DNA from: Candidatus Nomurabacteria bacterium
Lineage (GTDB): Bacteria > Patescibacteriota > Minisyncoccia > Phycocordibacterales > SBAW01
Assembly: GCA_943348815.1 (NCBI GenBank)
Contig: CALQYT010000003.1
Span: 4,679 to 68,678, forward strand
DNA: 64,000 nucleotides
Direction of reading: 5' to 3'
A program made the translations under genes and the position numbers. Of the stretch, positions 11,101-64,000 are shown in pieces. The notes under the pieces are model-generated. The model saw nothing but the letters and a program-made list of their open reading frames with translations. It did no database searches and was not told the DNA's origin. The number at the start of each line of letters is the position of its first letter. The stretch's first letter is position 1.

Positions 11101-12270
11101 TTCATTACCCTTCTGTACCAAATCGTCTACTTCAGCCAAGGCCAAAAAGCCATCCTTAAATAAAACGTACCGCTGCTCAAGCGTCATCCCTGGCGGCTGA
11201 TTGCGTGCTATTATCACGAGCGACGTTTCCAGCCGCTGCGCAAGCTCGCCGGCCGATTTGGTTTCGTACCGGGTCTTTTCCATCTCTTCCCGCCGCTTTT
11301 GACCTGGCTCGATTTTTTTACCCATTGCCATTTCACGACTATGCAACGAACGGTCTTTCTCCATCCTTCGACTCTCACGCACCGCCGCGATACCACCCGC
11401 TACAAGCGCGGTTAAACCTAAACTTGCCCAAGCGGCGCCCCGACTGGTCAGCGCCTTGGCTCCAAAAACGCCTACACTCGCTGCCATGCCGAGTCCTGCC
11501 GCAACGGTCGCTTCGTTTACAAGTAGAAATTTGCCTACTTTGCTGGATTGTATTCTGTCCACAAGACCGTCAACGCGCTTGAGCTCTTGGTCGGTCCTCA
11601 CATTGCTGCGCGCACGGCCCGCAACCACTTCAAACTCCAGATCAAGCAGTTCTGCACCAGTGCCGTGTGCTACCTGTGCTTGCACCTGCCACACCACCTC
11701 CTCGAGATTGTCGGCAAAGAGCCGATTGCGCTCACCTGCTTTTTCATCCAACACCTCGCCCTTAGCTGCGGCTACCGACTCGATAATAGCTTTACGCTCT
11801 ATCGCAAACGCTTCGCGCACCTGTGGATCACGCATATCTTTGAGTGCATACTCCTGCACCATCTCTAGGATTTTCTTTTTTATTTCTTTCTCTGCAGGAG
11901 TATCTTCGAGCACGGCGCGTTTTTCGCCCGCATCTTTATGCACCGCATATTGTGCATACTCACTGGTAAACTGCTTAACCACGGCACGGATAGATGACTC
12001 TACCGCCTCGCGCTCAGGCCCGTCGGCAACGGTCTCCCGTAGGCGCTCCAGCTCGTGAATTTCTTTTTGAGCTTTCGTTATTTCCTTTTGGCGATAGTAA
12101 TCGTATGCATAGTTGTGCTGCCAGAGCTTTTTCAAGAAACCTTTGAACCCTTTTAATTGATCCGCATTTTCAGTAAGACGCGCCTCGGCAGTGTCGCGCG
12201 CGTTCTCTTTAACACTATGCGTGCGCTCGACTATGGCAATCTTAATTTTTTGCTTGCGTGGTGCTTCCAT
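8122..12270 (-). CDS. Large multi-domain membrane protein with a C-terminal GT9 (heptosyltransferase-like) glycosyltransferase domain
   Basis: 1382 aa. The N-terminal ~240 aa is charged/coiled-coil. There are predicted TM helices (KFLLVNEATVAAGLGMAASVGVFGA, WASLGLTALVAGGIAAV, ATVGALVGLGVGLVA). The C-terminal ~350 aa matches GT9 motifs (ILMLDGPVGDSVVTMPV..., TISAGAGVQPKEYAPERW, VVVTPDTGLGHFAAALGTPNVMLILGDP). Confidence 0.6.
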   Translation of the reverse strand: MEAPRKQKIKIAIVERTHSVKENARDTAEARLTENADQLKGFKGFLKKLWQHNYAYDYYRQKEITKAQKEIHELERLRETVADGPEREAVESSIRAVVKQFTSEYAQYAVHKDAGEKRAVLEDTPAEKEIKKKILEMVQEYALKDMRDPQVREAFAIERKAIIESVAAAKGEVLDEKAGERNRLFADNLEEVVWQVQAQVAHGTGAELLDLEFEVVAGRARSNVRTDQELKRVDGLVDRIQSSKVGKFLLVNEATVAAGLGMAASVGVFGAKALTSRGAAWASLGLTALVAGGIAAVRESRRMEKDRSLHSREMAMGKKIEPGQKRREEMEKTRYETKSAGELAQRLETSLVIIARNQPPGMTLEQRYVLFKDGFLALAEVDDLVQKGNEEKKDYIHFSNPQNIVKERCELDVLRAQLRAAIHGTLSTDSELHSYVTSSTVNAELVAQRALVRGERETERERKDALFSQIKDRKVFKAATVGALVGLGVGLVAQETMAFFNKNQMGLIERLTQGKPVNPPDSVTALEWVRMKASHLINGEPSYMLMGGPVMDQIGSNHIRMPDGFSLTKVADTVTLIRNGEVVVSGLTTDRDGNFTDAAKDLLKKHDIALTGGPHTAINYIDTTVTEPGKRVAVRTPMSVGEAVQDYAERGDTKTIKRELWYDNNTPKPVFDKNELRLWYGGPNNTGVNAAGDYVYTVRGMRPDGSFHGPHSANAQELMRTGKLSLLLSVSKGTQNQVFEVAIDRNGQAIIPRDSEVARLLFETDAKGRAVFKGAFAEVAQTMRVREDATGVRILATQVGEDRPSVPDKVTYRTEDAITRRVTREETIRWWDTTINVPADPEVDPPPFIPFIPRTPLERLRNPDPLRTPVHGPSPEEPGHFAGGYGYERGSGGMKNDYTDLEKVYRNTQNSQRMKELVERLKYEKDLRVKYRSVLNRLKELEDFENLPARAQQVFEGERLQHNKRYNTDYSLSRFVDMQLDRTYRQIENIFIEESKVGGKPFAEEFYKTSPLRKGLERADEVILMLDGPVGDSVVTMPVIMALDHYFKQNGTTKQITVVSQHNKALFGALETQYPGLRVVNLAEVKALVQGAPNRERFVINADKTYKDYAALGVAPRRAGDPGYVMSVDWNSWLMEEAPREGKLTKRYDMIPQRVMRNLELMTGQKLFEDIKKVESFIGKRADHTEQVERLRTKYDIQPNEKVITISAGAGVQPKEYAPERWEELLTKIFAEHADAHVLFLEDPSAERRGRYASLMERLKTRFGRRFSVGKENAEFINPILAMSKVVVTPDTGLGHFAAALGTPNVMLILGDPIQWSEPKTIRVTHAKAFENYRKRTGTYALLWDQKWKSGYYIEENGEKIGASSIPPERIYKRINQVLSKP

Positions 12271-24359: not shown

Positions 24360-25037
24360 GTGAATTATCAAAAGTATGCACTTGCGTTTGTCATTACGGC
24401 AGCCATTTTTGGCACCGCGTTTTATATTGCCAACCGGCTCGACGCTCGCCGCATTTCTGACATCCGCACCACGCAAGAGGCGGTAGCAACCGATATACTC
24501 TCGCTCGAAACCCAGTTTGACCTCTTAGGTAGCATCGACTGTGCCACACTCCCTGACACGCCTATTCTCTCCGAAGAGCTCGCTTCGCTAGCCTCGCGCC
24601 TTAGTGTGGCCGAGCAAAATTTAGGGAGTAACAATGTCGAGGTCTTGGCGCTCAAAAAACAATATACGCTGTTGGAACTAAAAGACTACGTGCTGATGCG
24701 TCAGATAACACAAAAATGCCCGAAGTTTAAACCGGTCTACGTTTTGTATTTTTATTCTAACCAAGGCGACTGCCCACAGTGCACGGCGATGGGCGACGTC
24801 CTCACCTACCTGCGACAAGAATACCCGGCGCTGCGCGTCTACTCGTTTGACTATCACCTCGACCTCTCGGCTCTGCGCACCCTACTTACCCTGCGCAAAA
24901 TCGATGCAGAAAAAGGTCTCCCTGCCTTTGCGGTCAACAATCGCGCCGCGGTCTATGGGGTTAAAGATCTCGAGGAGACCACCAAGCTGATCCCCGAACT
25001 GAAAACCCTTGCTACAAGTACTCCTTCCTCTCAGTAA
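24360..25037 (+). CDS. Membrane-anchored thioredoxin-like protein with a CPQC motif
   Basis: N-terminal TM, then YFYSNQGDCPQCTAMGDVL, a CxxC in a thioredoxin-fold context. The track start at 24360 is a GTG. Confidence 0.4.
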   Translation: MNYQKYALAFVITAAIFGTAFYIANRLDARRISDIRTTQEAVATDILSLETQFDLLGSIDCATLPDTPILSEELASLASRLSVAEQNLGSNNVEVLALKKQYTLLELKDYVLMRQITQKCPKFKPVYVLYFYSNQGDCPQCTAMGDVLTYLRQEYPALRVYSFDYHLDLSALRTLLTLRKIDAEKGLPAFAVNNRAAVYGVKDLEETTKLIPELKTLATSTPSSQ

Positions 25038-50763: not shown

Positions 50764-51392
50764 GTGCTCATATCCTACCGGCCTTTGACTCTCCCCAAGC
50801 GCTCAAACCGTTCTTTCCCACAGAAAAAGAGCCTTGGGAAACACTGCCCTTGTTTGTCAAGAAAAAAAACGTCCAATTACTGTTGGGCGTCTTTCCTCTG
50901 TGGACACAGCTTGAGCGTTCTTTTTCTCGTACCGTTCGAACGCTTGGTGTGCCGGTGCTGTCCCTACCCTCGGAACGTATAGCGCTCGTTCCTACACTTG
51001 TCCGCGACCTGCCTGTAGGAAAAATAGTGGCGACAAGCCGCGACCTCCCCGCACTCGAGCGTATGAGTAGCACTCATGCCCCTATGCGCGATCTTATATT
51101 CCACATCGTCCTTACTCCCGAGGAACGTCCAATAATCTCGAGTCTCCAGATTGTTTTTGAAGTCCATCTTGTGCCCGGTGCGGTTGGGCTTTTCCAGTGC
51201 GAAGCACTCGCGAGCAAAAAAGAACTTCTGTTTCACCTGAGTAGCCGTTTTTACTGGGAGTTTGAGGACCAAACACTACTAGTTACCGATGACGCTCGTA
51301 CGGCTCGGTTTTCCCAAGCCCCGCTGCCTCTCCATTACAAAAAAAGAAACGCTCCGTGTCCGTGTGGACACCAGGTAGTCTTGCTTATATGA
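50760..51392 (+). CDS. Hypothetical protein (210 aa)
   Basis: It overlaps neighbours by 4 and 37 nt, consistent with operon packing. No recognisable domain. Confidence 0.4.
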   Translation: MSAHILPAFDSPQALKPFFPTEKEPWETLPLFVKKKNVQLLLGVFPLWTQLERSFSRTVRTLGVPVLSLPSERIALVPTLVRDLPVGKIVATSRDLPALERMSSTHAPMRDLIFHIVLTPEERPIISSLQIVFEVHLVPGAVGLFQCEALASKKELLFHLSSRFYWEFEDQTLLVTDDARTARFSQAPLPLHYKKRNAPCPCGHQVVLLI

Positions 51393-52588
51393 CGGAACTC
51401 GAAAAAGCTTGCACAGCCGCCGACAGAGCCCGGAGTAACCGCTGCTCCTCTTTTTATCGCGATCTCTATCAAGGATTGGCCCAACCTATTACTCCCGAGC
51501 AATGGACCCAAGTCCCCTTCCTTACTAAATCAGACATACTGCGAGTGCCTTTTATGCAGCGATTATTTGTCCCGTGGGAGAAGGTCGATACTATTGCACT
51601 TACGTCGGGGACTACGGGGAGCGGAGTATGCATACTGCCTCGACGGTTTTCTTTAGACTTGCCCTCGGATTTTCCGTATTACAAAGATCATCGGTTAATG
51701 ACCTTCTACTACTACTCCTATCGAATCCGTGCCGAATCAAAAACAATTTCTGGCGATCAGACTCGCTATGAGGCGAGCGCACAGCTTGCGGCACAAGCAG
51801 GCGTGGACGCACTCCACGGATCAATATCGCAATTGATAGCATTTGCTCCTCATGCAAAACGTGCGGGCCTCATTTCGAACATTCGCGCGCTATGTTCGAC
51901 CGGGGAGAGGATAAGCAAGCTCCAGCTCAATACCATACGCACTCTCTATCCTGGTGCCGAATTGCGCACGGTGTATGGTATGCAAGAAGTAAGTGTGGCC
52001 GGCTACTCTCCTCTCGTGCCACGGCCCGATCGCCCGCTCGCAGTAAAGCTCGTCCCCCACTATTATTTTGAAATACTGACTGAAGAAGGCCTTGTGGCGG
52101 ACAGCGGCACCGGCGAGCTGGTAGTGACCTCGCTTGAGGAAGATCCTTTCCCACTGATGCGCTATCGTACGGGCGATAAAGTCTCTGTGTTCGAAGACCG
52201 GGGCGAAAGACTTTTGGAGCCTCTCTCGCGGGTTGAAGAAGAACGGGTCCGTATCGGAGGAGGAGAGATAGTGTTGGACGAATTAGAGCGAGCTATTACT
52301 AAAACATTTGGAGAAAGTGTCGCCGACTTTGAGTGCACGGTAAAAGAGACTCTAGACGGAGAGACTATTCGTAGTGGCCTTGATCTGACCTTGTTTATAA
52401 AAAACAATCCTCCCCCGTGGTCGTCTACCGATGCAGCGCTCAAGCTCGCCACCGAGCTTCAGGCTAATCAACAGCGTACCTATCTTGACGGTATAGTGGC
52501 GGGACTCTATACCCCCATTACTTGCAGCTTCATGCTAGTGGGAGGCACACAGCTCCAAAAAAGGCGCCATCTAAGGGACGGGCGATAA
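51389..52588 (+). CDS. PaaK/CapK/F390-synthetase-like adenylate-forming enzyme
   Basis: LTSGTTGSG (AMP-binding P-loop) and YRTGD motifs. The length (~400 aa) and motif spacing are typical of the phenylacetate-CoA ligase-like family. Confidence 0.65.
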   Translation: MTELEKACTAADRARSNRCSSFYRDLYQGLAQPITPEQWTQVPFLTKSDILRVPFMQRLFVPWEKVDTIALTSGTTGSGVCILPRRFSLDLPSDFPYYKDHRLMTFYYYSYRIRAESKTISGDQTRYEASAQLAAQAGVDALHGSISQLIAFAPHAKRAGLISNIRALCSTGERISKLQLNTIRTLYPGAELRTVYGMQEVSVAGYSPLVPRPDRPLAVKLVPHYYFEILTEEGLVADSGTGELVVTSLEEDPFPLMRYRTGDKVSVFEDRGERLLEPLSRVEEERVRIGGGEIVLDELERAITKTFGESVADFECTVKETLDGETIRSGLDLTLFIKNNPPPWSSTDAALKLATELQANQQRTYLDGIVAGLYTPITCSFMLVGGTQLQKRRHLRDGR

Positions 52589-53377: not shown

Positions 53378-54268
53378 ATGTGGAAGATTGTTTTGGGACT
53401 GTGTCTTGCCGTGGCAGGGGTAACGTCTGCCGCAGCAGACCCGTATCCAACCAGGCCCATTCGGATCATCGTACCGTATGGGCCGGGGGTTGCCCCCGAC
53501 GTCATCGTGCGGCTCTACGTCGACGTGATGAAAAGCTCGGGGATACACTTCTTCATCGAAAACCAGCCTCAGGCGTATGGAGTGGTGGGGACCCGCAATC
53601 TCTATCACGCCGAGCCGGACGGCTATACGATGGGAGTCATCTCTGCGAGCCTGCTGTACCCGCACAAAGAGTACGACGCTCAAAGGTTTGAGTACGTGAG
53701 CGTCGTATCGCGTGACAAAATGTTCCTGGTAGTACCAAGCGCCTCACCGGTGCGGACGCTCCAAGAACTTATCGCGAGCGTACCCAAAAACTACAGTGCC
53801 CCCAATCCTGGGGCACAGCGTTTTGCGGCGGAGTTTATGCGCGTAACCGGGCTCACTGCCGTACAACTTCCCTACCGAGGGGGTTCTGCGGCGGCGGTGC
53901 TCGACCTTAAGGTCGGACGCGTCGACTACACCTTCCTCTTCGGTTTCCAGGTCAAACAGGGAATCGATGAGGGAATCTTGCGCCCGCTTGCGGTGGTGGA
54001 CCCGGAACGAAGCTTGTTCATCCCGGAAGTACCAACAATGAACGAGGCGCTCCTCAAAGCCGGCCGGTCTACACTGCCGGTGCGCTATATACAAATGGGG
54101 GTGGTGTTTCCTCCGGGTACACCTCCGACGTACGTACAAAAACTGGCGCAACTTATTTGTACGGCATCGCGCGACGAGGAGTTGCGCGAAAGGCTCCGAA
54201 AAACGTGGGTGGAAGCGATCTGCTCTACCCCAAAGGAGTACCGCGCTTTTGCGTCTGGCTTCCAATGA
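53378..54268 (+). CDS. Bug/TctC-family periplasmic substrate-binding protein (orphan; no tctA/tctB nearby)
   Basis: Signal peptide, then the DPYPTRPIRIIVPYGPG signature, GYTMGV and LPYRGG motifs characteristic of the TctC/Bug family. Confidence 0.75.
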   Translation: MWKIVLGLCLAVAGVTSAAADPYPTRPIRIIVPYGPGVAPDVIVRLYVDVMKSSGIHFFIENQPQAYGVVGTRNLYHAEPDGYTMGVISASLLYPHKEYDAQRFEYVSVVSRDKMFLVVPSASPVRTLQELIASVPKNYSAPNPGAQRFAAEFMRVTGLTAVQLPYRGGSAAAVLDLKVGRVDYTFLFGFQVKQGIDEGILRPLAVVDPERSLFIPEVPTMNEALLKAGRSTLPVRYIQMGVVFPPGTPPTYVQKLAQLICTASRDEELRERLRKTWVEAICSTPKEYRAFASGFQ

Positions 54269-54335: not shown

Positions 54336-55895
54336 ATGCGTACGATTTTCTATACGGCCACGCTTGGTTTTATTGCTTTGGCAGCCTGGCTTATTTTTAA
54401 CAAACAACACGCAGCTGCTTTTTTTTCAGATGTCTTGGAAGCACAGCGTATCTCGGAGACTGTCTCCGTGGGAGGTAGTCCGTACCAAGTGAAAGACGGC
54501 AATGTGTGGCAAAAAGACCGAGTCATTACCGGAGAAGAAGCACTCCCCATTCTTAAACTTACCTACGCGCTCACGCTCGCAAAGCGACACCCTCTTTTTT
54601 CGCTTGAAGGCAGCGACCCATGGGTGCTTGCCACCGCCACCGAAATGCTTGCCCGCGTCCAAGAAGGATACGTCGAGCTCCAATCGACGGCAGCGGAGCA
54701 GGCCTTAGTCCGCAATCTATATCCTATTAATTTTTTGAGCAACGAAGCTCAGACAGAAATTGCCCGCCGCGCCTTCATAGAGTCCCCATCGGACCGAACA
54801 TACCAACGGTACGACGCATCACTCACCCGGACACTCGTGGCGTATAAAAAAGATTTGTCCGTATTTCGAACTGCCTTTACCAAAGCGGTACCTTCCTTGC
54901 ACCGATCTTACTTCACTCTCGAGGGCATCACCGGAACGAGCAGCGCAATCGCATCACTCGATAGTTTGGCCTTGGGTGCACAAAAAACTGCTGCTCTACT
55001 CGATCGACGGACACAATGTCTACGAGACGCAACGTATCTATGTGACTCTCAAGATATACAACTCCCGCAACTGTATGCCCCCGAATCCGCCGCGGTGTCC
55101 AGCAATGCTCCACCCGCAGTGAGTTCTGTCGTTAATGAATATAAGCTTCAACGAACGAGAACATCTCCTGCTATAATCGTGGCCCTCGCACAGAGCGACT
55201 GCGCGCGCGGCCTTGCCGCGCCATATTATTTTGCAGTATATGAGGAGCGACCTTTGCGGTTGAGCGCCATCGATTTTATTAATGACATTCTTTTTCTTCC
55301 GATACGCGATGGGGGAGAAGATTCACTTTTCCATTATTTTATGAGTCGAGGAGCATCCTACTTTCCTCTCGTGCCTACGGCTCCCTACCAGTGTCCATCA
55401 GCGGGAAGCGACTTTAGTCGTATCTACGCGACCCTACAGGTCGCACGCACTCTAGGAAAACAGCCGGGGGTATTATCGGAAGATGACGTTATATCCTCGT
55501 TCAAAACAGCCTTAGACCACGCGGAGACAAACGGCGGTACGCAAAAAGACACGCTCACGGCACTTACTCTGATGCTCCACGACAAAAGTGCTGGGCTAGA
55601 TTGGTTGGTAGAAGAGATAGCGCGCTTTGGGGAAACCAACTTGCGAATGAAGCAGGGCGGTGTACCTATAGCGACAGCTCCGGACTTTTTGTTTCTTGCT
55701 GAAAGTAGTTTCTTTTCTCTGTTTCAGGGGTATAACCTTTCGGTAGGTCAAGGGGTTGGGGTATCTCCCGCGACCGCCGACCCACTCAGACAATACCAAA
55801 AAAACATACACTCGTGGCTCAAAGCGTCGGACGCCACCCGTGATGAAATGAACGTGAGTTTGCGTTTATTTGTTTCGATACATAAACAAATATAA
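54336..55895 (+). CDS. Membrane-anchored hypothetical protein (519 aa)
   Basis: N-terminal TM (TATLGFIALAAWLIF), then a large soluble domain with several Cys. No recognisable domain. Confidence 0.45.
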   Translation: MRTIFYTATLGFIALAAWLIFNKQHAAAFFSDVLEAQRISETVSVGGSPYQVKDGNVWQKDRVITGEEALPILKLTYALTLAKRHPLFSLEGSDPWVLATATEMLARVQEGYVELQSTAAEQALVRNLYPINFLSNEAQTEIARRAFIESPSDRTYQRYDASLTRTLVAYKKDLSVFRTAFTKAVPSLHRSYFTLEGITGTSSAIASLDSLALGAQKTAALLDRRTQCLRDATYLCDSQDIQLPQLYAPESAAVSSNAPPAVSSVVNEYKLQRTRTSPAIIVALAQSDCARGLAAPYYFAVYEERPLRLSAIDFINDILFLPIRDGGEDSLFHYFMSRGASYFPLVPTAPYQCPSAGSDFSRIYATLQVARTLGKQPGVLSEDDVISSFKTALDHAETNGGTQKDTLTALTLMLHDKSAGLDWLVEEIARFGETNLRMKQGGVPIATAPDFLFLAESSFFSLFQGYNLSVGQGVGVSPATADPLRQYQKNIHSWLKASDATRDEMNVSLRLFVSIHKQI

Positions 55896-56384
55896 TACGA
55901 AAGCGCCAAGCAATGCTCCCAAGAGCCCACTTGCGATTACAAACAGGTACGCAAGCGGAACCGTTTGAGATACTGTAAAAGGAAAAACAGCGGCAGCAAT
56001 CTCGTCTCCGGTAACGGTTCTGAAACTCACCTGAAGCGAATACGATCCTCCTTGTTCAAAAGTATAGAGCAACGTGGTGGGCCCGAGCGGTTGGCGTCGG
56101 ATACCTGTTGCAAGTAGAGTATTTTTGTCCTGCGAAACGACGCGTGTCCATACCTCGTCAAATTTGGCCGGCTTTGTTTTAACGGTATCACTCCAGAGAC
56201 TAAAATCGAACCGCGCGCTTTGTCCCGCTGTAATACTGATTGGATCGTACCCAACATCAATGAAGTAGGTAGTACCTACTGGCTGCTCCCACGAAGCGCC
56301 AGTGCTATGAGCACTCACATACAAAGGAGCGCACAAAAGAGCAGCTGCAACGAGAGAGAAAATTATATTCATAAACTTGACCAT
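55866..56384 (-). CDS. Secreted, C-terminally TM-anchored beta-sandwich-like protein, possibly YcnI/CopC-like
   Basis: Signal peptide ...LYVSA, then a mature N-terminus starting with His (HSTGASWEQ). About 120 aa, then a C-terminal TM LAYLFVIASGLLGALLGAFVLYLF and a basic tail. Confidence 0.4.
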   Translation of the reverse strand: MVKFMNIIFSLVAAALLCAPLYVSAHSTGASWEQPVGTTYFIDVGYDPISITAGQSARFDFSLWSDTVKTKPAKFDEVWTRVVSQDKNTLLATGIRRQPLGPTTLLYTFEQGGSYSLQVSFRTVTGDEIAAAVFPFTVSQTVPLAYLFVIASGLLGALLGAFVLYLFMYRNK

Positions 56385-57547
56385 ACGGCCCAGGCTGCTT
56401 CGCACGACTGGGTAGCCAACGGAGCCAGCACACACGAAGTTTGGATTTTTTCCTTAGACCAAAAGTCGGCCAGTTGTTGAAACGCCGCTTCAAAACAGTG
56501 TGTGTGCCACTCGTCCGGCAGCACCTTGCTCGAGCAAAAGGCGTACGCACCTTTTTGTTTATCGTCCGGTGTCCCTGCTTGTACGAGCCCACTTACGTAG
56601 GAACCTAAGCAATATTCTTGCAAGTCGGGGGCAAGCCCCAAACAGGCCGGGACCGCCTGGGCTGCAGTATTGAGCTGCCGCGCAAACATAGCTGCAAAGG
56701 TAGAGATTGTTCGCTGCAGATACTTGCTCGGTGTGTAGCGATACGCCAAATCAATTGCCTCTTGTAGTGTTTTGTCCGGAGTGAGGTTAAACACCACCGA
56801 AGCTAAGTTGGCGTAACACTCCTCCGGCACGCCGTCTGCGCCCAACTCTCTACAGATTTTAAAAGGGTCTTGTTTATCTATCTTTTTTGCATAGTTTTCA
56901 TCATACGAAATGCCGTTGTATGCGCCGCCAGCACATTTAACGAAATCCTCGTCGGTCTCCGCCGCCTGACGACACAAAGAAAGAGTCTGCTGCACTATTG
57001 CCACTGGGTCGCTCCACTCCCGGACGTCGTGGTGTATCACCGAACCATGTCCTACGCCGTGGAAGCATGCAGCACGGGAATAACTTTTTTGTCCGTTGGA
57101 GTCGTCACCTTGCATGGTGGTGCAAAACTCGCCTATCTCCTTGCCTACCTCTTTGCGGTTGCCTGACTCAAATAAAAATTCAGTGACAAATCCGTGGAAG
57201 AAACCAAAATCACAGACCTGCATATCGGGTGTAAAGGAGAGCCTCTCGCCTGCTTTAAACGATGTATAGGCTCGCTCCCCCACTTGGTGCGCAAAGGCGT
57301 GGCACATCTGTATAAAATCAGGCGACTGTTTCGAAAATATTTGGAGCTGTTGCAGAGCTTGAGGTATCTTATCTTCGACAAGCAGCTCCGAGACGGCAGA
57401 GTTCCAACATTGATACTTTGCGGAGAGACTTCCGCTGCACGTAACACTCCCTTGGGAAGCAAACACCCACCCACCCAACCCAACCCCCACTAACATAACC
57501 GGGACCATCCAAAACACTTTCTTCATCTCTACACTATATCTCAACAT
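56369..57547 (-). CDS. Cys/His-rich membrane-anchored protein, tandem paralog 1
   Basis: N-terminal TM, then CHAFAHQVGERAY, CDFGFFHGFV and CFHGVGHGSV motifs plus about 20 Cys. Confidence 0.6.
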   Translation of the reverse strand: MLRYSVEMKKVFWMVPVMLVGVGLGGWVFASQGSVTCSGSLSAKYQCWNSAVSELLVEDKIPQALQQLQIFSKQSPDFIQMCHAFAHQVGERAYTSFKAGERLSFTPDMQVCDFGFFHGFVTEFLFESGNRKEVGKEIGEFCTTMQGDDSNGQKSYSRAACFHGVGHGSVIHHDVREWSDPVAIVQQTLSLCRQAAETDEDFVKCAGGAYNGISYDENYAKKIDKQDPFKICRELGADGVPEECYANLASVVFNLTPDKTLQEAIDLAYRYTPSKYLQRTISTFAAMFARQLNTAAQAVPACLGLAPDLQEYCLGSYVSGLVQAGTPDDKQKGAYAFCSSKVLPDEWHTHCFEAAFQQLADFWSKEKIQTSCVLAPLATQSCEAAWAVWSSL

Positions 57548-58695
57548 GACGGTTGATACTGGGCCGGAAGCAACCTACAGAAGCCTCCTCGACCCTGCGC
57601 ATCTCCAAACAACTGTCGTGCGTCGCGCGCCAAACCACTGTAACATTCTTGGGCGACGCTTCCCTGCGCTCGGGCACAAAAAGAAACCGCCTCTGCTGCT
57701 GCCGATCGACTCTCCTCGACTATTGCCTGCGCGCTGCCTTCATAACACATCCCTTGCCAAGCCACAGGAAAATTATCACACGCATGCTGTGCCTCTGTTG
57801 CATCACCAAGTGACAGGCGACCGATAATCGCAGAGATGCCCCGCCAGCAGTACTCCTCTTCTTGCGCATTAGGATAGCCCGAGCAGTACGCCTGCACGCC
57901 TATACCACGCAGCAACTCTTCGCGGAAGAGCGGCCAGCTTTCTTCCCTGCACGAGCCGATATACTCAGGATCTTTAAACGTCGCACAAAACTGCCGCACC
58001 GTTGTTTTGGTCGGTTTTGTTTTCATCCGAGCAATCAACTGATAGTCATCGGGCTCAAGCGGTTGATAAATTTGCATAAACACGCCTTGGATACAGACCC
58101 GCTGCGCGTCTTTAGGAAGGGTCCGGCGGCACAAATCGAGCGCCTGCGGCAAATTGGCATCGGTAATAAAGTCGTATAAGTGCCCCATGCCGTGCTCGCA
58201 CACCGCTTGGTCAAAGGGTGTGGGCTGCCACCCTGCGTGCGGTTTGCAGGCGAGAGAGAAATCAGGGATTAGTTTTTCTATGGTGGCCACATCCAGCACT
58301 TCGGAGCGGAAGCGTCCGCCCACCACACCATGCAGGTACCCGTTCGAACAAAGACTGTCGGGCGGATTATACGCTAAATCATCGAGCCATCTTGTAGGAT
58401 CTTCGGCCACTACCCGCTCGCCTATTTTGTGCCCAAGCACATGACAAAATTGATAGCTCGGATCTTGCGCACGCAACGCTCGTACCACGTCAAAAAGCTG
58501 CGCCACCCCGTGCTGTGGGTATAGTTGTGGCACCAACGATTCGTAACACACCTCATGTGTCTTTTCTTTGGCACATTGCGCGGCAAACCCGGCAGCGACC
58601 GCGCGCGCGTCAAACGCGCTTGCCTTGAGAATGGAGAGGGTTGCTCCACCGCATAATATAAGTATCAAGGCGAGGACGGCAATTTTTAGACGCAT
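57541..58695 (-). CDS. Cys/His-rich membrane-anchored protein, tandem paralog 2
   Basis: CHVLGHKIGERVV, CSNGYLHGVV and CEHGMGHLYD. It overlaps its neighbours by 7 and 10 nt. Confidence 0.6.
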   Translation of the reverse strand: MRLKIAVLALILILCGGATLSILKASAFDARAVAAGFAAQCAKEKTHEVCYESLVPQLYPQHGVAQLFDVVRALRAQDPSYQFCHVLGHKIGERVVAEDPTRWLDDLAYNPPDSLCSNGYLHGVVGGRFRSEVLDVATIEKLIPDFSLACKPHAGWQPTPFDQAVCEHGMGHLYDFITDANLPQALDLCRRTLPKDAQRVCIQGVFMQIYQPLEPDDYQLIARMKTKPTKTTVRQFCATFKDPEYIGSCREESWPLFREELLRGIGVQAYCSGYPNAQEEEYCWRGISAIIGRLSLGDATEAQHACDNFPVAWQGMCYEGSAQAIVEESRSAAAEAVSFCARAQGSVAQECYSGLARDARQLFGDAQGRGGFCRLLPAQYQPSC

Positions 58696-59837
58696 AGATT
58701 TTGTTTATACCGATCGGGAACACTGGTGCATACCTCTCGCAAACCCACGCTACCATAAAACTGTTTTGTCGCTGAGAGAAGCGTGCTATAGCAGGCGGGT
58801 AGCAGGCTCGCTTGTATATCGGGCGAGCCGCACAGCAGCAGCATGTCGGTATACTCCGCCCCGGGAGTGCCAAACTCTTGTATACCTACAACTACTCCCG
58901 TGATACAAGCATCGGCATCATGGGTAAGAGCGCTGCAGACACCCGAAACTTCTTTCGGTGAGACGATCATTTTTCTACCGCGCGCAGTACTGAAGTACGT
59001 CCCCGCAACACCGCGCACCGCCAACTCTCGATAGTGCGGGTCGGAAATCTCTTCGGTAAATGCTATCGCCTTGCCGAAGTGGTAGTTGGCCGCAAAAGTG
59101 GCGAGCGTATTCATTTGATCGTAACAGGCATCTTTTTCGGTCGTAGTAAAGTTTGGCGAACCACAGAGACTAAAGGGCTCTCCACCTATAGTGAGCTGGT
59201 ACTTAGCATCGCGATACATAAGCGCAACTGCATTAAACACACCCGAGGCGCAGCGGTAGGCGTGGTCTGTGTTCCCACCTGCGACTTCTTTGCATAAAGC
59301 GAGCCCAGGTGCGGCAATCTTTTGCGCGTCGCCCCACACTCTAGGGTCGGTGCCATCGGTCACTCCATGTCCAACACCGTGATAACAGGCGCCCTCAGCG
59401 TAGCCTGGTGGGTTTGGCACGACCGTACCTGCGTAGCTACAAAATGCGCGCGCCTCGTCAAAATTATTATTTTCATAGATAAGCTCCTCCATAAACCCGT
59501 GATAAAAGCCGTACCCGCAATAGCTTGTTTTATCACTGAGTTCTACCCTGCCGGTGGCATGAAATTCTTTATACGCCTCTTTGCCAAGTTCGTGCGTCTC
59601 GGCGTGACACGTTGCCAAATAACCCGGGTCGGCGTTGTACGCCTCGGCGAGCAGATCGAATGCCGCGCTGAGCCCATGGGTTTTTAGTGTTGCGTCGATG
59701 GCTTTGTTGTAACAATTGTTCTTGTCTTGTACGTCTTGTTGGCATACCAAAAGTGGGTCGGCACGCATGTGCCACGCATACACGGCTCCTCCAACCACCA
59801 AAATACACCCTGCCGTAATAAAAATTATTTTTTGCAC
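58686..59837 (-). CDS. Cys/His-rich membrane-anchored protein, tandem paralog 3
   Basis: CHAETHELGKEAY, CGYGFYHGFM and CYHGVGHGVT. Confidence 0.6.
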   Translation of the reverse strand: MQKIIFITAGCILVVGGAVYAWHMRADPLLVCQQDVQDKNNCYNKAIDATLKTHGLSAAFDLLAEAYNADPGYLATCHAETHELGKEAYKEFHATGRVELSDKTSYCGYGFYHGFMEELIYENNNFDEARAFCSYAGTVVPNPPGYAEGACYHGVGHGVTDGTDPRVWGDAQKIAAPGLALCKEVAGGNTDHAYRCASGVFNAVALMYRDAKYQLTIGGEPFSLCGSPNFTTTEKDACYDQMNTLATFAANYHFGKAIAFTEEISDPHYRELAVRGVAGTYFSTARGRKMIVSPKEVSGVCSALTHDADACITGVVVGIQEFGTPGAEYTDMLLLCGSPDIQASLLPACYSTLLSATKQFYGSVGLREVCTSVPDRYKQNLCV

Positions 59838-61015
59838 GTCGGTTGATAGTAAGCGGGCAAAAGAACGCAGACCTCTGTGCGCCCAGGCAGATATTGCGCG
59901 ATCGCATGGGTGAGCTCATCCCAACAGGCACTTTGTGAGCCAGTCGGCGCGTCGGTACAAAAACGTACCGATGCCTGCGGATTGTTTTCTCCGCCCCAAA
60001 ATACCGATTGCAATGCTTCGCGGACGCACGCCTCTTGGCCCTCGTGAGTTTGTGCGAGCGTGCACCACTGTGCCGCCCGTGTGTATTCCTCGTCACCGAA
60101 CTGGTCGACGTGCCGTATATCCCGTGCGCCTGCGATCGTCACGAACTCCTTACCAAAACCGCCATAGCACGCGCGGCGTAATTCCGGGCGCCCTGCAGGC
60201 ACTGCATCGCAAAATCCAAATGCTTTAGGGAACGTGGCTGGATCGGGCGACGTAAGTTCTGCACCCGCTTGGGCAAAGAGCTCGGGCGTCAAATACTCAA
60301 AACAAAATGTTTTTGCACTATCGGGGATCAAGGACCCCAAACAGAGCGCCGTCGGATCGTGCGGGTTAAGATACTTTTCTCGCGCAACGACCCACGCACC
60401 GTGGTCGTGCCCGCCGCCGCCCATGAGTTCCATCACTGCGCCGCCGACGCACTGTGTATATTGTTCGTCGTTGTATTGTGACGTCCCCATGCGCTTGCAA
60501 AAAGAGACCGTCTTTTGTAAGTCGTATCCGAAGTATGCAAACACTCCGTGTCCTAAACCGTGGTAACACATGGTGTACGCACCCAAACCGCCGGGGGCCT
60601 GGCGACAAGCATCGTCTATTTTTTTGAGCGTTGCGTCGCTCGTACCAAATTCGTTGAGTGCGCCTATCACCACCGCGTGTGAGCAGGCGTTACGGAAATC
60701 TTGCGTGCAGTAGGCTATCCCGCCCATACCCTGCTGTTTGTACAACTCATCCCCCACGGCGTGGCCGAGCAAGTGCAAGTCGGTATTAGACGGGAGGTTG
60801 GCGATTTTCAAAACAGCAAAAGCATATACGGCGCCCTTGTCCTTAGCGAGGGCAACAAAACGATCCGATAACTCTTTAAAGCTTTCAACATTCTTACCTA
60901 TACTCTGTGCCTCGGCATACGGCAGCGGATGCGAGCGCCCCAAAAGCATCAACACACCAACCGTAAGCACCGCGGCGGCTATAAGAATTTTTTTTATCCG
61001 CGGCGTCTCAACCAC
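59825..61015 (-). CDS. Cys/His-rich membrane-anchored protein, tandem paralog 4
   Basis: LHLLGHAVGDELY, CSHAVVIGAL and CYHGLGHGVF. Confidence 0.6.
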   Translation of the reverse strand: MVETPRIKKILIAAAVLTVGVLMLLGRSHPLPYAEAQSIGKNVESFKELSDRFVALAKDKGAVYAFAVLKIANLPSNTDLHLLGHAVGDELYKQQGMGGIAYCTQDFRNACSHAVVIGALNEFGTSDATLKKIDDACRQAPGGLGAYTMCYHGLGHGVFAYFGYDLQKTVSFCKRMGTSQYNDEQYTQCVGGAVMELMGGGGHDHGAWVVAREKYLNPHDPTALCLGSLIPDSAKTFCFEYLTPELFAQAGAELTSPDPATFPKAFGFCDAVPAGRPELRRACYGGFGKEFVTIAGARDIRHVDQFGDEEYTRAAQWCTLAQTHEGQEACVREALQSVFWGGENNPQASVRFCTDAPTGSQSACWDELTHAIAQYLPGRTEVCVLLPAYYQPTCKK

Positions 61016-61749
61016 ACTATCAACAATACCGCAGCTCCAAGAACTACGACAGAGGGGAGCGGATTACCGACCATCGGTCGCGCTCCTCCAAAGAGATATT
61101 CTCCCTTGTTAGCAAGCTGCGTAGGCCCTTTTTCAACCTCAGGGATAACCGGGTTAGCAAGAATGTAGGGATCATGTCGGTTCCCTGTTAGTTGCCAGGA
61201 GACTTTACCTCCAGCCACCCCACCTCCGATCGTAAATTGGTTATTTTTCTCTTCCTTTTTTATATAGAGGTTCGGCATGGTGGCCCCCACTGGTTTTAGC
61301 TGGTAGCGAGCATCTCGGTTAAGTAAATCCCAATAGGCGGGGAGTATAACCACCGCCTCGCCTTTGGTGTCCAGTGTGGCGATCCCGTCGTAGAGATTTT
61401 TTGAATCAGGCGACTCAACAAACGAGTGGTAGAGGAGTTTGTTAGCCGCATCGATGGGGTCGTCGATCACAAACGAGCCGGAGCCTTTAGAGAGGTTACC
61501 AACACTGAGAGCCGATGCACCGCTTTGAGCTACTTGAACATTTTTAGTAAAGGTTTTTTGGTACAGGCCTTGATAATACGATTGGTAGTAAGACTGATAA
61601 TACGATTGGTAGTAAGACTGATAATACGATTCGTAGTAGGACTGATAATACGATTCCCCGTACGTTGCAAGTGCGAAGAAAGGTTGTGTTAAGAAGGTTG
61701 CGCCAAAAAGAAAAGTAACAAGAAGGGCGAAGGTGGTCTTTATTTGCAT
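60994..61749 (-). CDS. Secreted protein with a (SYYQ)n repeat, a conserved family-B domain, and a C-terminal TM plus RRRG tail
   Basis: Signal peptide, ESYYQSYYESYYQSYYQSYYQSYYQSYYQ, then FVIDDPIDAANKLLYHSFVESPDSKNLYDG...NLYIKKEEKNNQF...VSWQLTGNRHDPYILANP. It ends with a hydrophobic helix plus RRRG. Confidence 0.6.
   Translation of the reverse strand: MQIKTTFALLVTFLFGATFLTQPFFALATYGESYYQSYYESYYQSYYQSYYQSYYQSYYQGLYQKTFTKNVQVAQSGASALSVGNLSKGSGSFVIDDPIDAANKLLYHSFVESPDSKNLYDGIATLDTKGEAVVILPAYWDLLNRDARYQLKPVGATMPNLYIKKEEKNNQFTIGGGVAGGKVSWQLTGNRHDPYILANPVIPEVEKGPTQLANKGEYLFGGARPMVGNPLPSVVVLGAAVLLIVWLRRRG
61566..61657 (-). repeat. About 3.75 tandem copies of a 24-nt unit encoding YYQSYYQS
   Basis: TTGGTAGTAAGACTGATAATACGA repeated head-to-tail with one variant copy (TTCGTAGTAGGACTG...). 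Confidence 0.7.
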
Positions 61750-62288
61750 AGTGGTTCAAAAATACACTCACCTTTAGGTACCGACTGCGTTGGGCCCTTT
61801 TCCACCTCGACCGGTTGCGGATGGGCCAGAATGTATGGGTCGTGGCGCGTACCAGTAACTTGCCAGGACACGGTGCCGCCAGGAGCGCCTCCTCCAATAC
61901 TAAACTGGTTATTCTTTTCCTCCTGCTTGATATAGAGGTTGGGCATGGGCTGCTCTAATGCAAAAAATTGATAACGCGCATCTTTGTTTAGAGCATCCCA
62001 ATACGCCGGCAGCACGATAGTCACTTCCCCTTTAGAATCGAGCGTTGCAGTACCGTCATACAAGTTTTCAGGAGCATTAGACTCTACGAAGGAGTGATAC
62101 AAGATTTTGTTAGCGGGATCGAGCGGGTGATCGATAGCAAAAGTGCCGGAGGTTTTGGTGAGGGTACCCACGACCGTGAGATTACCTTTTATCTTAACGC
62201 TCCCCGTCACATTGATCGTCGCCGCAAGACCTACCAACGGCAAACACAACAAAAACAGCACGATGCTTTGGTAGAGTTTATTTCGCAT
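61740..62288 (-). CDS. Secreted family-B paralog 2
   Basis: Signal peptide (LYQSIVLFLLCLPLVGLAA), then FAIDHPLDPANKILYHSFVESNAPENLYDG...NLYIKQEEKNNQF...VSWQVTGTRHDPYILAHP. Confidence 0.6.
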   Translation of the reverse strand: MRNKLYQSIVLFLLCLPLVGLAATINVTGSVKIKGNLTVVGTLTKTSGTFAIDHPLDPANKILYHSFVESNAPENLYDGTATLDSKGEVTIVLPAYWDALNKDARYQFFALEQPMPNLYIKQEEKNNQFSIGGGAPGGTVSWQVTGTRHDPYILAHPQPVEVEKGPTQSVPKGECIFEPLCK

Positions 62289-62895
62289 AGAGATCGGGGA
62301 AGAGATAATCGCCCTGTTGGACAAGGGTATCCGGACCTTTCTTGACCTCAGGCACTATCGGGTTGGCAAGAATAAATGGATCATGCCGAATACCGGTTAC
62401 TTGCCAAGAAATCTTGCCGCCCGGTGCGCCGCCGGCAATTTTGAGTACCGGCGAGCCAAATAGGCCGAAGAACTTTCTACCCACTTCGGAAGTAAGGTGC
62501 AAATTCGGCATCGGTTGTCCTATCGGCGTTGCAAGGTAGCGAAAGTCTTTATTGAGCGCGAGGAAATATTCTGGCAGTTCGATAGTGACTTCTCCGTTGT
62601 TATTGAGTGTTTCGAGACCATCATAAATATTTTTAACCTCTGGCGACTCAACATTGAAGTGATAAAGCAACTTGTTTTTTGGATCAAGTGGATCGTCGAT
62701 GACGAAGCTTTTAGCGCCGGCAGTGACCGACCCCGTGACATTGGTGGAGGTACCCAAAAAGCTTGTACTGTAGCTTAGTGTAATGACGTTGTGACTAAAA
62801 TCGGCCTGTGCATCACAGGGGAGCGATCCGGCGGCAAAAGCACACGCCGTCATTACGAACACCGACCAAAAGATACGCGGGTGAGACATCTTCAT
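62278..62895 (-). CDS. Secreted family-B paralog 3
   Basis: Signal peptide (IFWSVFVMTACAFAAGS), then FVIDDPLDPKNKLLYHFNVESPEVKNIYDG...ISWQVTGIRHDPFILANP. A TATACT -10 lies upstream. Confidence 0.6.
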   Translation of the reverse strand: MKMSHPRIFWSVFVMTACAFAAGSLPCDAQADFSHNVITLSYSTSFLGTSTNVTGSVTAGAKSFVIDDPLDPKNKLLYHFNVESPEVKNIYDGLETLNNNGEVTIELPEYFLALNKDFRYLATPIGQPMPNLHLTSEVGRKFFGLFGSPVLKIAGGAPGGKISWQVTGIRHDPFILANPIVPEVKKGPDTLVQQGDYLFPDLYAK

Positions 62896-62920
62896 CTCTT
62901 CTAGTATACTGTACGACCAT

Positions 62921-63394
62921 ATGGAACAAAAAAGCTTGTGGACTGTTGGGGGGATCCTCCTGTGCGCCGCGGTGGGAGGCATCCTCATTTGGCACCACCT
63001 TTCACAATCTCCTTCCTATACTCCACCCGCACAAGAACCGCCAGGCAAGGGAGTTGTTGGTAACGTAAAGTTAAATAAAGACTCGTACGACACGCTGATC
63101 ACTTACACCGATAGCGGATTTACGCCGAGCGATATCACTATTGCACAAGGCACCCGCGTGCGGTTCTTAAATAACTCTGCGCAAGAAATTTGGCCTGCTT
63201 CGGGTATCCACCCAACCCACACGCTGTATCCCGAAAAAGAAAGTGGCGATTGTTTAGGTAGCTCGTTCGACTCCTGCACCACGCTAGCCAAAGGTGAGTT
63301 TTATGACTTCACCTTCTACTACGTAGGCGCGTGGCCGTACCACGACCACTTGCACGCCTACCAAACCGGCACCATAACGGTTACGGCGAAATAG
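62921..63394 (+). CDS. TM-anchored cupredoxin-like domain protein
   Basis: N-terminal TM, then FTPSDITIAQGTRVRFLNNSAQEIWPASGIHPTH...YDFTFYYVGAWPYHDHLHAYQTGTITV. This is a plastocyanin/azurin-like strand order with a His-rich putative metal site, but no canonical Cys/Met ligands. Confidence 0.4.
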   Translation: MEQKSLWTVGGILLCAAVGGILIWHHLSQSPSYTPPAQEPPGKGVVGNVKLNKDSYDTLITYTDSGFTPSDITIAQGTRVRFLNNSAQEIWPASGIHPTHTLYPEKESGDCLGSSFDSCTTLAKGEFYDFTFYYVGAWPYHDHLHAYQTGTITVTAK

Positions 63395-64000
63395 AAGCTT
63401 TAGCGTTTATTTCAAATCCTGGGTAACTCTTATCCTCTTGGTCGGGACGGAGGTTCGGCCACTTGGCGTTGTCGAAGCGAAGCGCCGAGAGCCGCATCGA
63501 AACCTCGCCCGGCTGGCTCGAAACAATTTTGAGCGTGTTATGCGCTGCGTCTTTTTCGTAATGTACACTGCCGTCGAATGCGGGAGTAAGCGCAACTACC
63601 AAGTCCTTCCAGTTGGTGCCAAAGTCGGTGATTTGGTAAAAGAGCCACACGTCGCTGCCCTTCTCGAGCGAGTTAAAGGAGATCGTGTATTCATACTTGC
63701 CGCTGGCGCCTTTTTGCGAAAGTTCGATGGTCTGCATTACTTCTTCGTGCACGCCAACCGCTGACTGGCCATACGTTGCGTACTTAATGCCATCGATGGT
63801 GTACACCGGGTCGATGGTGGCAACATCGAGTTTGCCCGCTATCTTGATGTCGCCGTAGAAGGTCGAGGTCGCTAAACCAAGCGTCGTCTGGCCGCGGGCG
63901 CCCACAAACAAGCGGTCATTGATTGCAAATTGTTGTGCGGGTGATGAAGTGCCGACGCCCACATAGCCGCTGCTTGCGCCCGTGCCACCAATGACCGAGA
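63381..64000 (-). CDS. Partial CDS (N-terminus lies beyond the window end), hypothetical Gly/Ser-rich then beta-rich protein
   Basis: The reading frame stays open to the window edge (...SVIGGTGASSGYVGVGTSSPAQQFAINDRLFVGARGQ...). The stop is at 63381. Confidence 0.4.
   Translation of the reverse strand, partial: SVIGGTGASSGYVGVGTSSPAQQFAINDRLFVGARGQTTLGLATSTFYGDIKIAGKLDVATIDPVYTIDGIKYATYGQSAVGVHEEVMQTIELSQKGASGKYEYTISFNSLEKGSDVWLFYQITDFGTNWKDLVVALTPAFDGSVHYEKDAAHNTLKIVSSQPGEVSMRLSALRFDNAKWPNLRPDQEDKSYPGFEINAKASISP

Follow-up and report, generated by a model that had tools for sequence, protein, structure and literature searches.

A candidate extracytoplasmic metal-binding module of Patescibacteria built on an N-terminal-histidine beta-sandwich, a Cys-less cupredoxin-like protein and an array of all-alpha paralogs

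Among the closest described counterparts of the locus reported here are secreted proteins whose first mature residue is a histidine. YcnI binds Cu(II) through its N-terminal His together with Glu50 and an adjacent Trp137, with a Kd of ~2 nM (PMC8424229), and an invariant N-terminal His on a secreted immunoglobulin (Ig)-like sandwich has been validated as a predictor of Cu or Ni binding (PMC8424229, PMC12537917). Four more, unrelated families of secreted beta-sandwich proteins with an N-terminal His have been shown to bind Cu or Ni, the conservation of the His ranging from 65 to 100%; the sandwich is Ig-like in DUF6702 and Ang-1 and has 13 strands in DUF4198, and the metal preferences extend from Cu in Ang-1 and Ang-2 (a mono-His brace) to Ni in DUF4198 and to Ni, Co or Cu, with Ni over Cu, in DUF6702 (PMC12537917). 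Single-domain cupredoxins, for their part, have been invoked as NirK electron donors in models of the Candidate Phyla Radiation (CPR) (PMC5581439, PMC12931201). Here we describe a locus in a 64,000-nucleotide stretch of a Candidatus Nomurabacteria genome (assembly GCA_943348815.1, contig CALQYT010000003.1, positions 4,679 to 68,678; the whole stretch is hereafter called the window), which encodes an N-terminal-His protein (His1), an array of four Cys/His-rich paralogs (Par1 to Par4) and a cupredoxin-like protein anchored by a transmembrane (TM) segment (Cup), together with three members of a second paralog family (F2a to F2c) and a 519-residue neighbor (p519). Homologs of the locus proteins carry Candidatus Kaiserbacteria names, a CPR/Patescibacteria lineage, and CPR bacteria are credited with hardly any metal-dependent chemistry in their envelope.

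We read this locus as a lineage-specific (Kaiserbacteria/Paceibacteria, CPR), operon-like module organized around three predicted metal sites: a membrane-tethered extracytoplasmic apparatus in which His1 would capture metal, and Cup and Par would provide a multi-His metal centre. Metal binding is what we infer here from sequence signatures, structural models and analogy, and we place the probability of this reading at about 0.5. Every product of the module is extracytoplasmic by prediction, carrying either a signal peptide or a TM anchor. The His1, Cup and Par families are undescribed, their homologs all being labelled 'hypothetical' or annotated automatically, and no protein of the module is a member of a copper-protein family that has been characterized. 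An earlier sequence-only reading of the window had proposed a possible copper- or metal-handling envelope locus, with a YcnI/CopC-like His1 and a cupredoxin-like protein bracketing the paralog array; all the proteins and motifs that it listed are present in the open reading frame (ORF) listing (Table 1) and are conserved well above what chance would give, and its view that the array and the two proteins flanking it form one unit is borne out by the conserved synteny and gene fusions presented below.

The feature that defines His1 is the histidine exposed by signal-peptide cleavage. The N-terminus reads MVKFMNIIFSLVAAALLCAPLYVSA followed by HSTGASWE, and predicted cleavage between the two leaves His26 as residue 1, as had been proposed from the sequence. 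All 17 close homologs keep Ala25-His26, and they have no second conserved His. When 1.84 billion cluster representatives were searched with a profile, 1,179 relatives were recovered (764 at E<=1e-10), all ~165-190 amino acids (aa) long, which brings the family to ~1,180 representatives counted at 50% clustering. When 164 family representatives were aligned, His26 was present in all 161 non-gapped sequences and was the only invariant His, with Ala, Gly or Ser at position -1 in 161/161 and mostly Ala or Val at position -3. The most conserved stretch of the family is H-x-x-G-x-S-[FWL]-E at the N-terminus, and D43, G45, Y46, W79 and R81 are near-invariant in the same alignment (98% for D43 and 99% for W79), with E33 conserved at 82%. 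Metagenomic homologs, found with a hand-made degenerate DNA pattern, agree with this picture, as Ala or Gly directly precedes the His at the predicted cleavage site in all 13 whose N-terminus lies on the contig. The N-terminal His after cleavage is a real, family-defining feature of His1, and the protein represents a new, large candidate family, with a predicted metal site, in the class of N-terminal-His metalloproteins.

The AlphaFold2 (AF2) model of His1 (predicted local distance difference test score, pLDDT, 90.6) shows a signal-peptide helix at residues 4-17, an Ig-like sandwich of eight strands at residues 30-139 and a C-terminal TM helix at residues 144-171, in keeping with the beta-rich domain and terminal anchor first recognized in the sequence; residues 25-27, around His26, have pLDDT values below 50. 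Of the His brace sought in such models, the N-terminal His and the sandwich are present and a second conserved brace His is absent. The label 'YcnI/CopC-like', taken as a statement of family, did not survive. Neither the window protein nor its 17 homologs matched DUF1775 (PF07987) or CopC (PF04234) in Pfam at E<=1, members matching only weak Ig-like Pfam families, and PDB sequence and profile searches with His1 returned no matches. A Foldseek search of the PDB with the His1 model retrieved generic Ig-like sandwiches, headed by the MG domain of alpha2-macroglobulin (E=5e-4); CopC (6tpb) stood at rank 20 (E=4e-3), CopC, PmoD and CrdA superposed poorly and came no higher than ranks 20-40, and YcnI was not found in the top 50. 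Given that Pfam, the PDB and Foldseek yielded no specific match, His1 would work at best like YcnI without belonging to its family, and we regard it by analogy as a YcnI/CopC analogue at most, a candidate mono-His-brace metal-capture protein.

These searches bear directly on the possibility that the locus serves copper homeostasis or resistance in the classical ycnKJI or copCD manner, in which case His1 would be a genuine YcnI or CopC member that delivers Cu to an importer or exporter. The architecture of His1 does equal that of YcnI, with a signal peptide, an N-terminal His, a beta-sandwich and a TM helix (PMC8424229), and CopC, PmoD and CrdA do figure among the weak Foldseek matches. However, the constant neighbors of His1 are Par and p519, and the cop and cus genes that would be expected beside a copper locus were sought in vain: CopA, CopZ, CsoR, CopC, CopD, NirK, Sco, PCuAC, cus, YcnJ and YcnK are missing both among the Pfam-scanned window ORFs and in the Pfam annotation precomputed for six related flanks. 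Combined with the family, PDB and structural-neighbor searches, this leaves membership in a ycn or cop family largely refuted and a locus of that kind very improbable.

The second predicted metal site lies in Par. The four window copies share only 21-24% pairwise identity and keep C-H-x3-H-x2-G-[EDK], C-x-H-G-x-G-H and 12 invariant Cys; they also keep a C-x2-G-x2-H-G element, which is shifted in Par4. Across 48 members, His85, His89, His122, His168 and His172 are invariant, and 16 Cys positions are conserved at >=80%, a number that fits an exported protein with disulfides. Counted over 74 distinct ORFs from 25 loci, paralogs with just ~20-25% identity, H85 is kept in 60/60, H89 and H122 each in 59/60, and H168 and H172 each in 71/71, which extends to the wider family the H-x3-H and HG.GHG clusters first noticed in the window array. 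Among the paralogs, conservation between loci is highest for Par4 (50-59% identity). The AF2 model of Par2 (pLDDT 93.4; predicted template-modelling score 0.88) is all-alpha, with 22 helices, and places His85 and His89 on helix 4, His122 on helix 6 and His168 and His172 on helix 8, both pairs with i/i+4 spacing. Since helices 4, 6 and 8 alternate and thus pack side by side in a two-layer repeat, the model points to a single site, in which the five His would converge into one multi-His metal centre.

Par has no relatives in Pfam, NCBIfam, PHROG, PADLOC or PDB sequence searches, no weak Pfam family recurs among the 48 members, and a Foldseek search of the PDB with the Par2 model returned generic solenoids only (E>=0.036, TM-score<=0.32). 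Weak local matches to NodB/CE4 polysaccharide deacetylases, whose NodB homology domain bears an Asp-His-His metal triad, around the H-x3-H motif (E=0.17 and E=0.026) vanished with the 48-sequence profile, and this assignment was rejected because the matches were not reproduced with the deeper profile and because the model is all-alpha. As judged from the predicted structure, Par is a new all-alpha, disulfide-rich fold family with a five-His signature.

Cup, the third component, consists of an N-terminal TM segment followed by a cupredoxin-like domain, with the YHDHLHAY cluster at residues 140-147. The window protein matches Pfam Cupredoxin_1 (PF13473) at E=2.7e-4 and 21.4 bits, under the 27-bit gathering cut-off; there are 145 close homologs, many of them with PF13473 in precomputed annotation, and homologs have often been auto-annotated as 'plastocyanin', a label used by the Joint Genome Institute (JGI), or as 'cupredoxin domain-containing protein'. 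With the family profile, the last 35 residues align to amicyanin residues 71-105 (E ~2e-3), which puts Asp142 at the position of Cys92, His145 at that of His95 and a variable residue at that of Met98; weak sequence matches to plastocyanin and, with the profile, to 6hbe and 6vox were also obtained. Among 99 distinct Cup domains, His97, His100, His141 and His143 (the HPTH and HxH motifs) are each conserved in 97-98, Asp (77) or Asn (22) occupies position 142, His145 is kept in 22 only, and the Met position is variable (K/H/Q/N). A Cys111/Cys119 pair occurs in ~88 of the 99 and is absent from short forms and from those fused to Par (see below), which have no Cys at all. Because the position of the Cys ligand is occupied by Asp or Asn in 99/99 domains, a type-1 (blue) copper site is excluded. 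The sub-threshold PF13473 match and the amicyanin alignment suggest the cupredoxin-like character proposed for Cup, and the type-1-like copper geometry fails. By its alignments, Cup is a probable cupredoxin-like fold that lacks the type-1 Cys and Met ligands, and the ligand set that remains, H-P-T-H plus H-x-H, would lie at the canonical metal-binding end.

This ligand pattern decides whether Cup could carry electrons as a blue-copper protein of the plastocyanin type, such as a NirK donor, with the locus as part of an electron-transfer chain. The idea draws on the 'plastocyanin' labels that JGI attaches to many homologs, on the weak plastocyanin and amicyanin matches and on the single-domain cupredoxin donors of NirK that CPR papers invoke (PMC5581439, PMC12931201). 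Against it stand the loss of the Cys ligand throughout the family, with no Cys at all in fused Cup, the retention of the C-terminal His in 22/99 domains only, the absent axial Met and the lack of NirK in the scanned window ORFs and in the annotation of the six flanks. At the level of ligand residues the electron-carrier reading is refuted, and we give it next to no weight.

Cup is widely distributed. We confirmed 176 copies in GTDB species genomes, in many CPR phyla and in DPANN archaea (Woesearchaeota, Pacearchaeota, Aenigmatarchaeota, Micrarchaeota and Nanoarchaeota), and in the literature we found nothing specific describing a Cys-less cupredoxin of CPR or DPANN organisms. That Cup occurs in both groups suggests a role linked to life as an ultra-small symbiont. 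Two neighboring genes recur beside it. A protein of ~125 aa with four TM segments, which matches DoxX weakly (Pfam E=1.7e-3), follows Cup in 21/80 species loci, in CPR and DPANN alike, and is the immediately following gene in 20 of these 21, often with overlapping stop and start codons; a thioredoxin-reductase-like gene lies downstream of Cup on the opposite strand in 16/80 loci, within ~160 nt in 11. The loci behind these DPANN, DoxX and thioredoxin-reductase observations include those that we labelled L020, L034, L035, L056, L061, L066, L070, L071, L079, L083 and L087, among others.

Gene order ties the three families together. Mapping of related contigs with Blast and hidden Markov models showed that the order of three F2 genes, Cup, three to nine Par genes and His1, with p519 converging on the latter, recurs in >20 loci, and that the module is found in many Kaiserbacteria/Paceibacteria genomes. 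The orientation of Cup varies, the gene being either co-directional inside the operon or divergent beside F2c, as in the window. Par is the immediate neighbor of His1 in 13 of 14 His1-seeded metagenome loci, the exception being a 1-kb contig. A search with PADLOC gave no matches in the locus. In at least seven loci (L001, L005, L007, L016, L018, L039 and L101, with L103 as a further case), Cup and Par form a single polypeptide of ~455-550 aa, for example L007:8046-9410 (+) and L005:1851-3215 (-), in which a signal peptide is followed by a Cup domain with FWPAS..HPTH and FHDH intact and then by a complete Par domain; in these fusions Cup is devoid of Cys, and the DCLGSSFDSC loop is missing from it. 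Because they are fused in several genomes, which is the classic fusion argument for physical partnership, Cup and Par probably act as a pair. Cup is, in our view, a general CPR/DPANN protein that was recruited to Par, and sometimes fused with it, in the Kaiserbacteria/Paceibacteria lineage.

Taken as a metal-binding module, the locus could work as follows. Signal peptidase I would cleave His1 so that His26 becomes residue 1, and the amine and imidazole of His26, probably with the carboxylate of Glu33 or Asp43 beside Trp79, would chelate a divalent metal. This metal would most likely be Cu(II), bound in the manner of the YcnI and Ang-1 mono-His braces, in view of these precedents and of the cupredoxin partner. 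The C-terminal TM helix would hold His1 at the membrane surface, in a capture or hand-over role. Par would act as a disulfide-stapled alpha-helical repeat whose five His form one metal centre, several divergent paralogs sharing the conserved core, and the His of Cup may form a multi-His metal centre with Par, possibly at the interface of the two. What the data show directly are the anatomy, conservation, gene order, fusions and modelled folds; besides metal binding itself, it is the identity of the metal, the clustering of the His in three dimensions, the hand-over from protein to protein and any catalytic activity that we infer in this scheme. A more specific version holds that Cup and Par make up a new type of extracytoplasmic multi-His (copper) centre, with an H-x-H plus H-x-x-H half-site from Cup that resembles those of multicopper oxidases and NirK, five His from Par and His1 supplying the metal as a dedicated, membrane-tethered mono-His-brace chaperone, and that, independently, Cup of CPR and DPANN organisms, often followed by a DoxX-like membrane protein, is a non-blue redox protein with copper or another metal that metabolic reconstructions have misread as plastocyanin; in this full form the scheme is speculative and rather unlikely.

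Several observations weigh against the metal-binding module. His1 has no detectable homology to YcnI or CopC, its fold matches being generic, and none to DUF4198 or DUF6702. The copper genes named above are missing from the scanned window ORFs and from the annotation of the related flanks. Two acidic positions of Par are only partially conserved, Glu93 being acidic in 36/60 sequences and Asp217 in 52/69, and in a subfamily of shorter Par proteins (~300-380 aa) nothing but the C-x-H-G-x-G-H core and its Cys partners is retained, the first three invariant His being lost or diverged beyond alignment. Finally, Par, His1 and F2 are all absent from the 10 kb around Cup in ~65 of the 80 Cup loci, which indicates that Cup has a role independent of the module.

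If the architecture is read correctly, the metal could still be another one, so that Ni(II), Zn(II) or Fe rather than copper is acquired or used. DUF4198 and DUF6702, which are N-terminal-His beta-sandwiches, prefer Ni over Cu (PMC12537917), a point that also tells against copper in the module as we propose it; the Par inventory of five His and partly conserved acidic residues would suit di-iron or Zn as well, and the missing copper genes point the same way. In the opposite direction, the one family of the module with a probable cupredoxin fold points to copper chemistry, the characterized mono-His braces (YcnI, Ang-1 and Ang-2) favor Cu(II) (PMC8424229), and genes for Ni, Zn and Fe transporters (NikA-E, ZnuABC and Feo) were likewise not seen in the flanks. 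We consider another metal unlikely.

The proteins that accompany His1, Par and Cup invite a different explanation. F2a, F2b and F2c, which the sequence-only reading had not described, are three tandem exported paralogs with 42-55% identity, and their conserved domain (FVIDDPLDP..NKLLYH..VES) has no Pfam match. F2b shows a weak similarity (32% identity, E=6e-4) to an Arthrobacter phage minor tail protein, and in PHROGs only F2a and F2b matched, weakly, families of unassigned function, PHROG 17490 being among the F2 similarities. Only one His, H108 as numbered in F2a, is invariant in F2, which has no His-cluster motif of the Par type, and the trio is always syntenic with the Cup/Par array, as in L001, L004, L005, L007 and others. 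F2a additionally contains a 24-bp tandem repeat at 61571..61655 (3.5 copies, 96% match), which encodes a Tyr-rich (SYYQSYYE/Q)n segment directly after the signal peptide, and its C-terminal TM helix with an RRRG tail resembles a C-terminal sorting or anchor signal. The p519 family has four invariant Cys and no conserved His, is often duplicated and gave no Pfam or NCBIfam match; its homologs are convergent to His1 in almost every locus, among them L001, L002 and L004 and 10 of 14 metagenome loci. Orthologs of the giant surface protein at the edge of the window range from >1151 aa (L007) to >4795 aa (L005) and precede the F2 genes (F2c) in other genomes.

On these grounds the locus might be a metal-free cell-surface or host-interaction apparatus, in which F2, Par, p519 and the giant protein would serve as adhesins or as enzymes of the envelope, the conserved His would be catalytic (as in hydrolases) or structural, and the His at position +1 would have another role. 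CPR bacteria are episymbionts with many surface proteins, and this lifestyle suits such a reading, as does the constant placement of the module beside a giant surface protein and three F2 genes with their weak similarity to a phage minor tail protein; the strong divergence of Par outside its core (21-24% identity) would likewise be expected of binding proteins. The conservation of His at position +1 in 161/161 His1 sequences, however, has no known rationale except N-terminal chelation (PMC12537917), the five His of Par (i/i+4 pairs on neighboring helices) and the four of Cup are typical metal-site signatures, and Pfam and profile scans matched no hydrolase family. We hold a metal-free apparatus to be improbable, and prefer the metal-binding module.

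The layout of the locus in the window is given in Table 1, with gene boundaries taken from the ORF listing and from independent gene calls on the identical public contig. On the minus strand the order is F2c, F2b, F2a, Par4, Par3, Par2, Par1 and His1, tightly packed, and since neighboring genes overlap by a few bases, as is typical of operons, the F2-Par-His1 series is operon-like. The p519 gene is convergent with that of His1 and overlaps its 3' end by 30 nt, and Cup is divergent from F2c, with 31 bp between them. Other gene callers start His1 at 56372 (168 aa). A promoter and terminator scan of the locus gave counts not clearly higher than the shuffled expectation. The rest of the window is housekeeping in character, encoding GyrB, PheS/T, DnaE, a class II aminoacyl-tRNA synthetase, GAPDH, a glycosyltransferase and a TctC-type binding protein. 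The last of these, a solute-binding protein (E=7e-34) at 53378..54268 (+), directly precedes the module on its upstream side, and L001, L002 and L004 likewise have TctC or DctP binding proteins close to the module. A weak match to AMP-binding enzymes is found near the module at 51356..52588 (+), and the equivalent flank in L001 contains MBOAT, AMP-binding and PP-binding genes (dlt-like). Two very large window ORFs, at 41050..46701 (-) with 1883 aa and at 8122..12270 (-) with 1382 aa, are probably further surface proteins, as typical of CPR genomes. The thioredoxin-like CPQC protein that had earlier been drawn into a common metal-binding and redox theme does exist as a TM-anchored protein of 225 aa at 24360..25037 (+), with its CPQC motif at 24771..24782 and no Pfam domain, but it lies 31 kb away behind GyrB, PheST and the glycosyltransferase, and a link to the locus was rejected; it may be an extracytoplasmic thiol-disulfide oxidoreductase, of relevance to disulfide-rich exported proteins and unlinked to the locus.

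Table 1. Coordinates of the module and its immediate neighbors in the window, followed by examples of the short Par subfamily from related loci.
Feature	Position	Strand	Source or remarks
p519, TM-anchored extracytoplasmic protein, 519 aa	54336..55895	+	ORF listing
His1 protein, 172 aa	55866..56384	-	ORF listing; AF2 model; family alignment
His1 signal peptide, residues 1-25, ends VSA	56310..56384	-	classic n/h/c regions
His26 codon (predicted mature N-terminal residue)	56307..56309	-	
Par1, Cys/His-rich all-alpha paralog	56369..57547	-	HAFAHQVGE 57275..57301; CFHGVGH 57047..57067
Par2, the AF2-modelled paralog	57541..58695	-	HVLGHKIGE 58417..58443; CEHGMGH 58180..58200; invariant His85/89/122/168/172
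Par3	58686..59837	-	HAETHELGK 59580..59606; CYHGVGH 59367..59387
Par4	59825..61015	-	HLLGHAVGD 60749..60775; CYHGLGH 60548..60568; additional GGGGHDHG cluster
F2a, second paralog family	60994..61749	-	signal peptide, (SYYQ)n repeat, conserved domain, C-terminal TM helix and RRRG tail
F2b, second paralog family, secreted	61740..62324	-	
F2c, second paralog family, likely 203-aa product	62278..62889	-	ORF reaches 62988
Cup, TM-anchored cupredoxin-like protein	62921..63394	+	HPTH 63209..63220; HDHLH 63341..63355; Cys111/Cys119 63251..63277
Giant surface protein, C-terminal end	63381..64000	-	continues beyond window
Short Par subfamily, examples	L004:6112-7704; L007:7013-8056; L007:12312-13214; L005:715-1863; others		

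Three consequences follow for the annotation and study of these organisms. With ~1,180 representatives and an N-terminal His conserved at 100% in the aligned sequences, His1 is a candidate new mono-His-brace metalloprotein family. Cup represents a probable cupredoxin variant that lacks the Cys and spans CPR and DPANN as a whole, and the 'plastocyanin' label on the family is likely a mis-annotation, as its members lack the Cys essential for a blue-copper site; assignments of NirK donors in CPR bacteria (PMC5581439, PMC12931201) need re-checking wherever Cup-family members underlie them. The Cup-Par fusion, finally, offers a concrete two-domain target.

Comparison with known systems sets the module apart at each of its predicted sites. 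YcnI of B. subtilis (DUF1775) and His1 share a signal peptide, an N-terminal His, a beta-sandwich and one C-terminal TM helix, as well as a single conserved His; for Glu50 and Trp137 of YcnI, the conserved E33 or D43 and W79 are candidate counterparts in His1. Unlike YcnI, a PF07987 member, His1 has no match to that family, and YcnI is not its top structural neighbor; YcnI is accompanied by YcnJ (CopC-CopD) and YcnK, whereas His1 is accompanied by Par and p519 and is confined to CPR lineages. Ang-1, Ang-2, DUF4198 and DUF6702 resemble His1 as secreted beta-sandwiches whose first mature residue is a conserved His, present in 100% of His1, Ang-1 and Ang-2 sequences; the 'signal-strapping' families differ in having a HupE/UreJ permease where His1 has a single C-terminal TM helix as anchor, and in their gene neighborhood, and searches detected no homology between them and His1. 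The bis-His braces of CopC/PcoC and of lytic polysaccharide monooxygenases likewise present an N-terminal His on a beta-sandwich, but their defining second His ligand is absent from His1, in which His26 is the sole invariant His and PF04234 finds no match.

For Cup, the type-1 cupredoxins amicyanin and plastocyanin would belong to the same Cupredoxin_1 fold family, of which membrane-anchored versions are known, and it is the C-terminal strand-loop-strand of Cup that aligns to amicyanin; Cup departs from them in the replacement of Cys by Asp/Asn, the variable Met and the loss of most C-terminal His, and in the added H-P-T-H and H-x-H motifs. In multicopper oxidases, His residues flanking the type-1 Cys build copper sites at domain interfaces (H-C-H, and H-x-x-H or H-P-x-H), and in NirK the type-2 His is adjacent to the type-1 Cys; the inter-domain sites of these enzymes are of the type-2 and trinuclear kinds. 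Cup differs from both in being a single domain with no type-1 centre, whose proposed partner is the alpha-helical Par and not a cupredoxin; as an analogy only, it resembles them in the His on either side of the Cys position and in a further His placed three residues beyond the upstream ligand His. CupA of S. pneumoniae is a membrane-anchored cupredoxin-fold Cu chaperone with Cys/Met ligands for Cu(I) and CopA as partner. Whereas CupA relies on Cys/Met ligands and CopA, Cup has His, with no CopA in the scanned window ORFs or related flanks; the two proteins nevertheless share an N-terminal TM anchor, a single outward cupredoxin-like domain and the lack of a blue-copper role.

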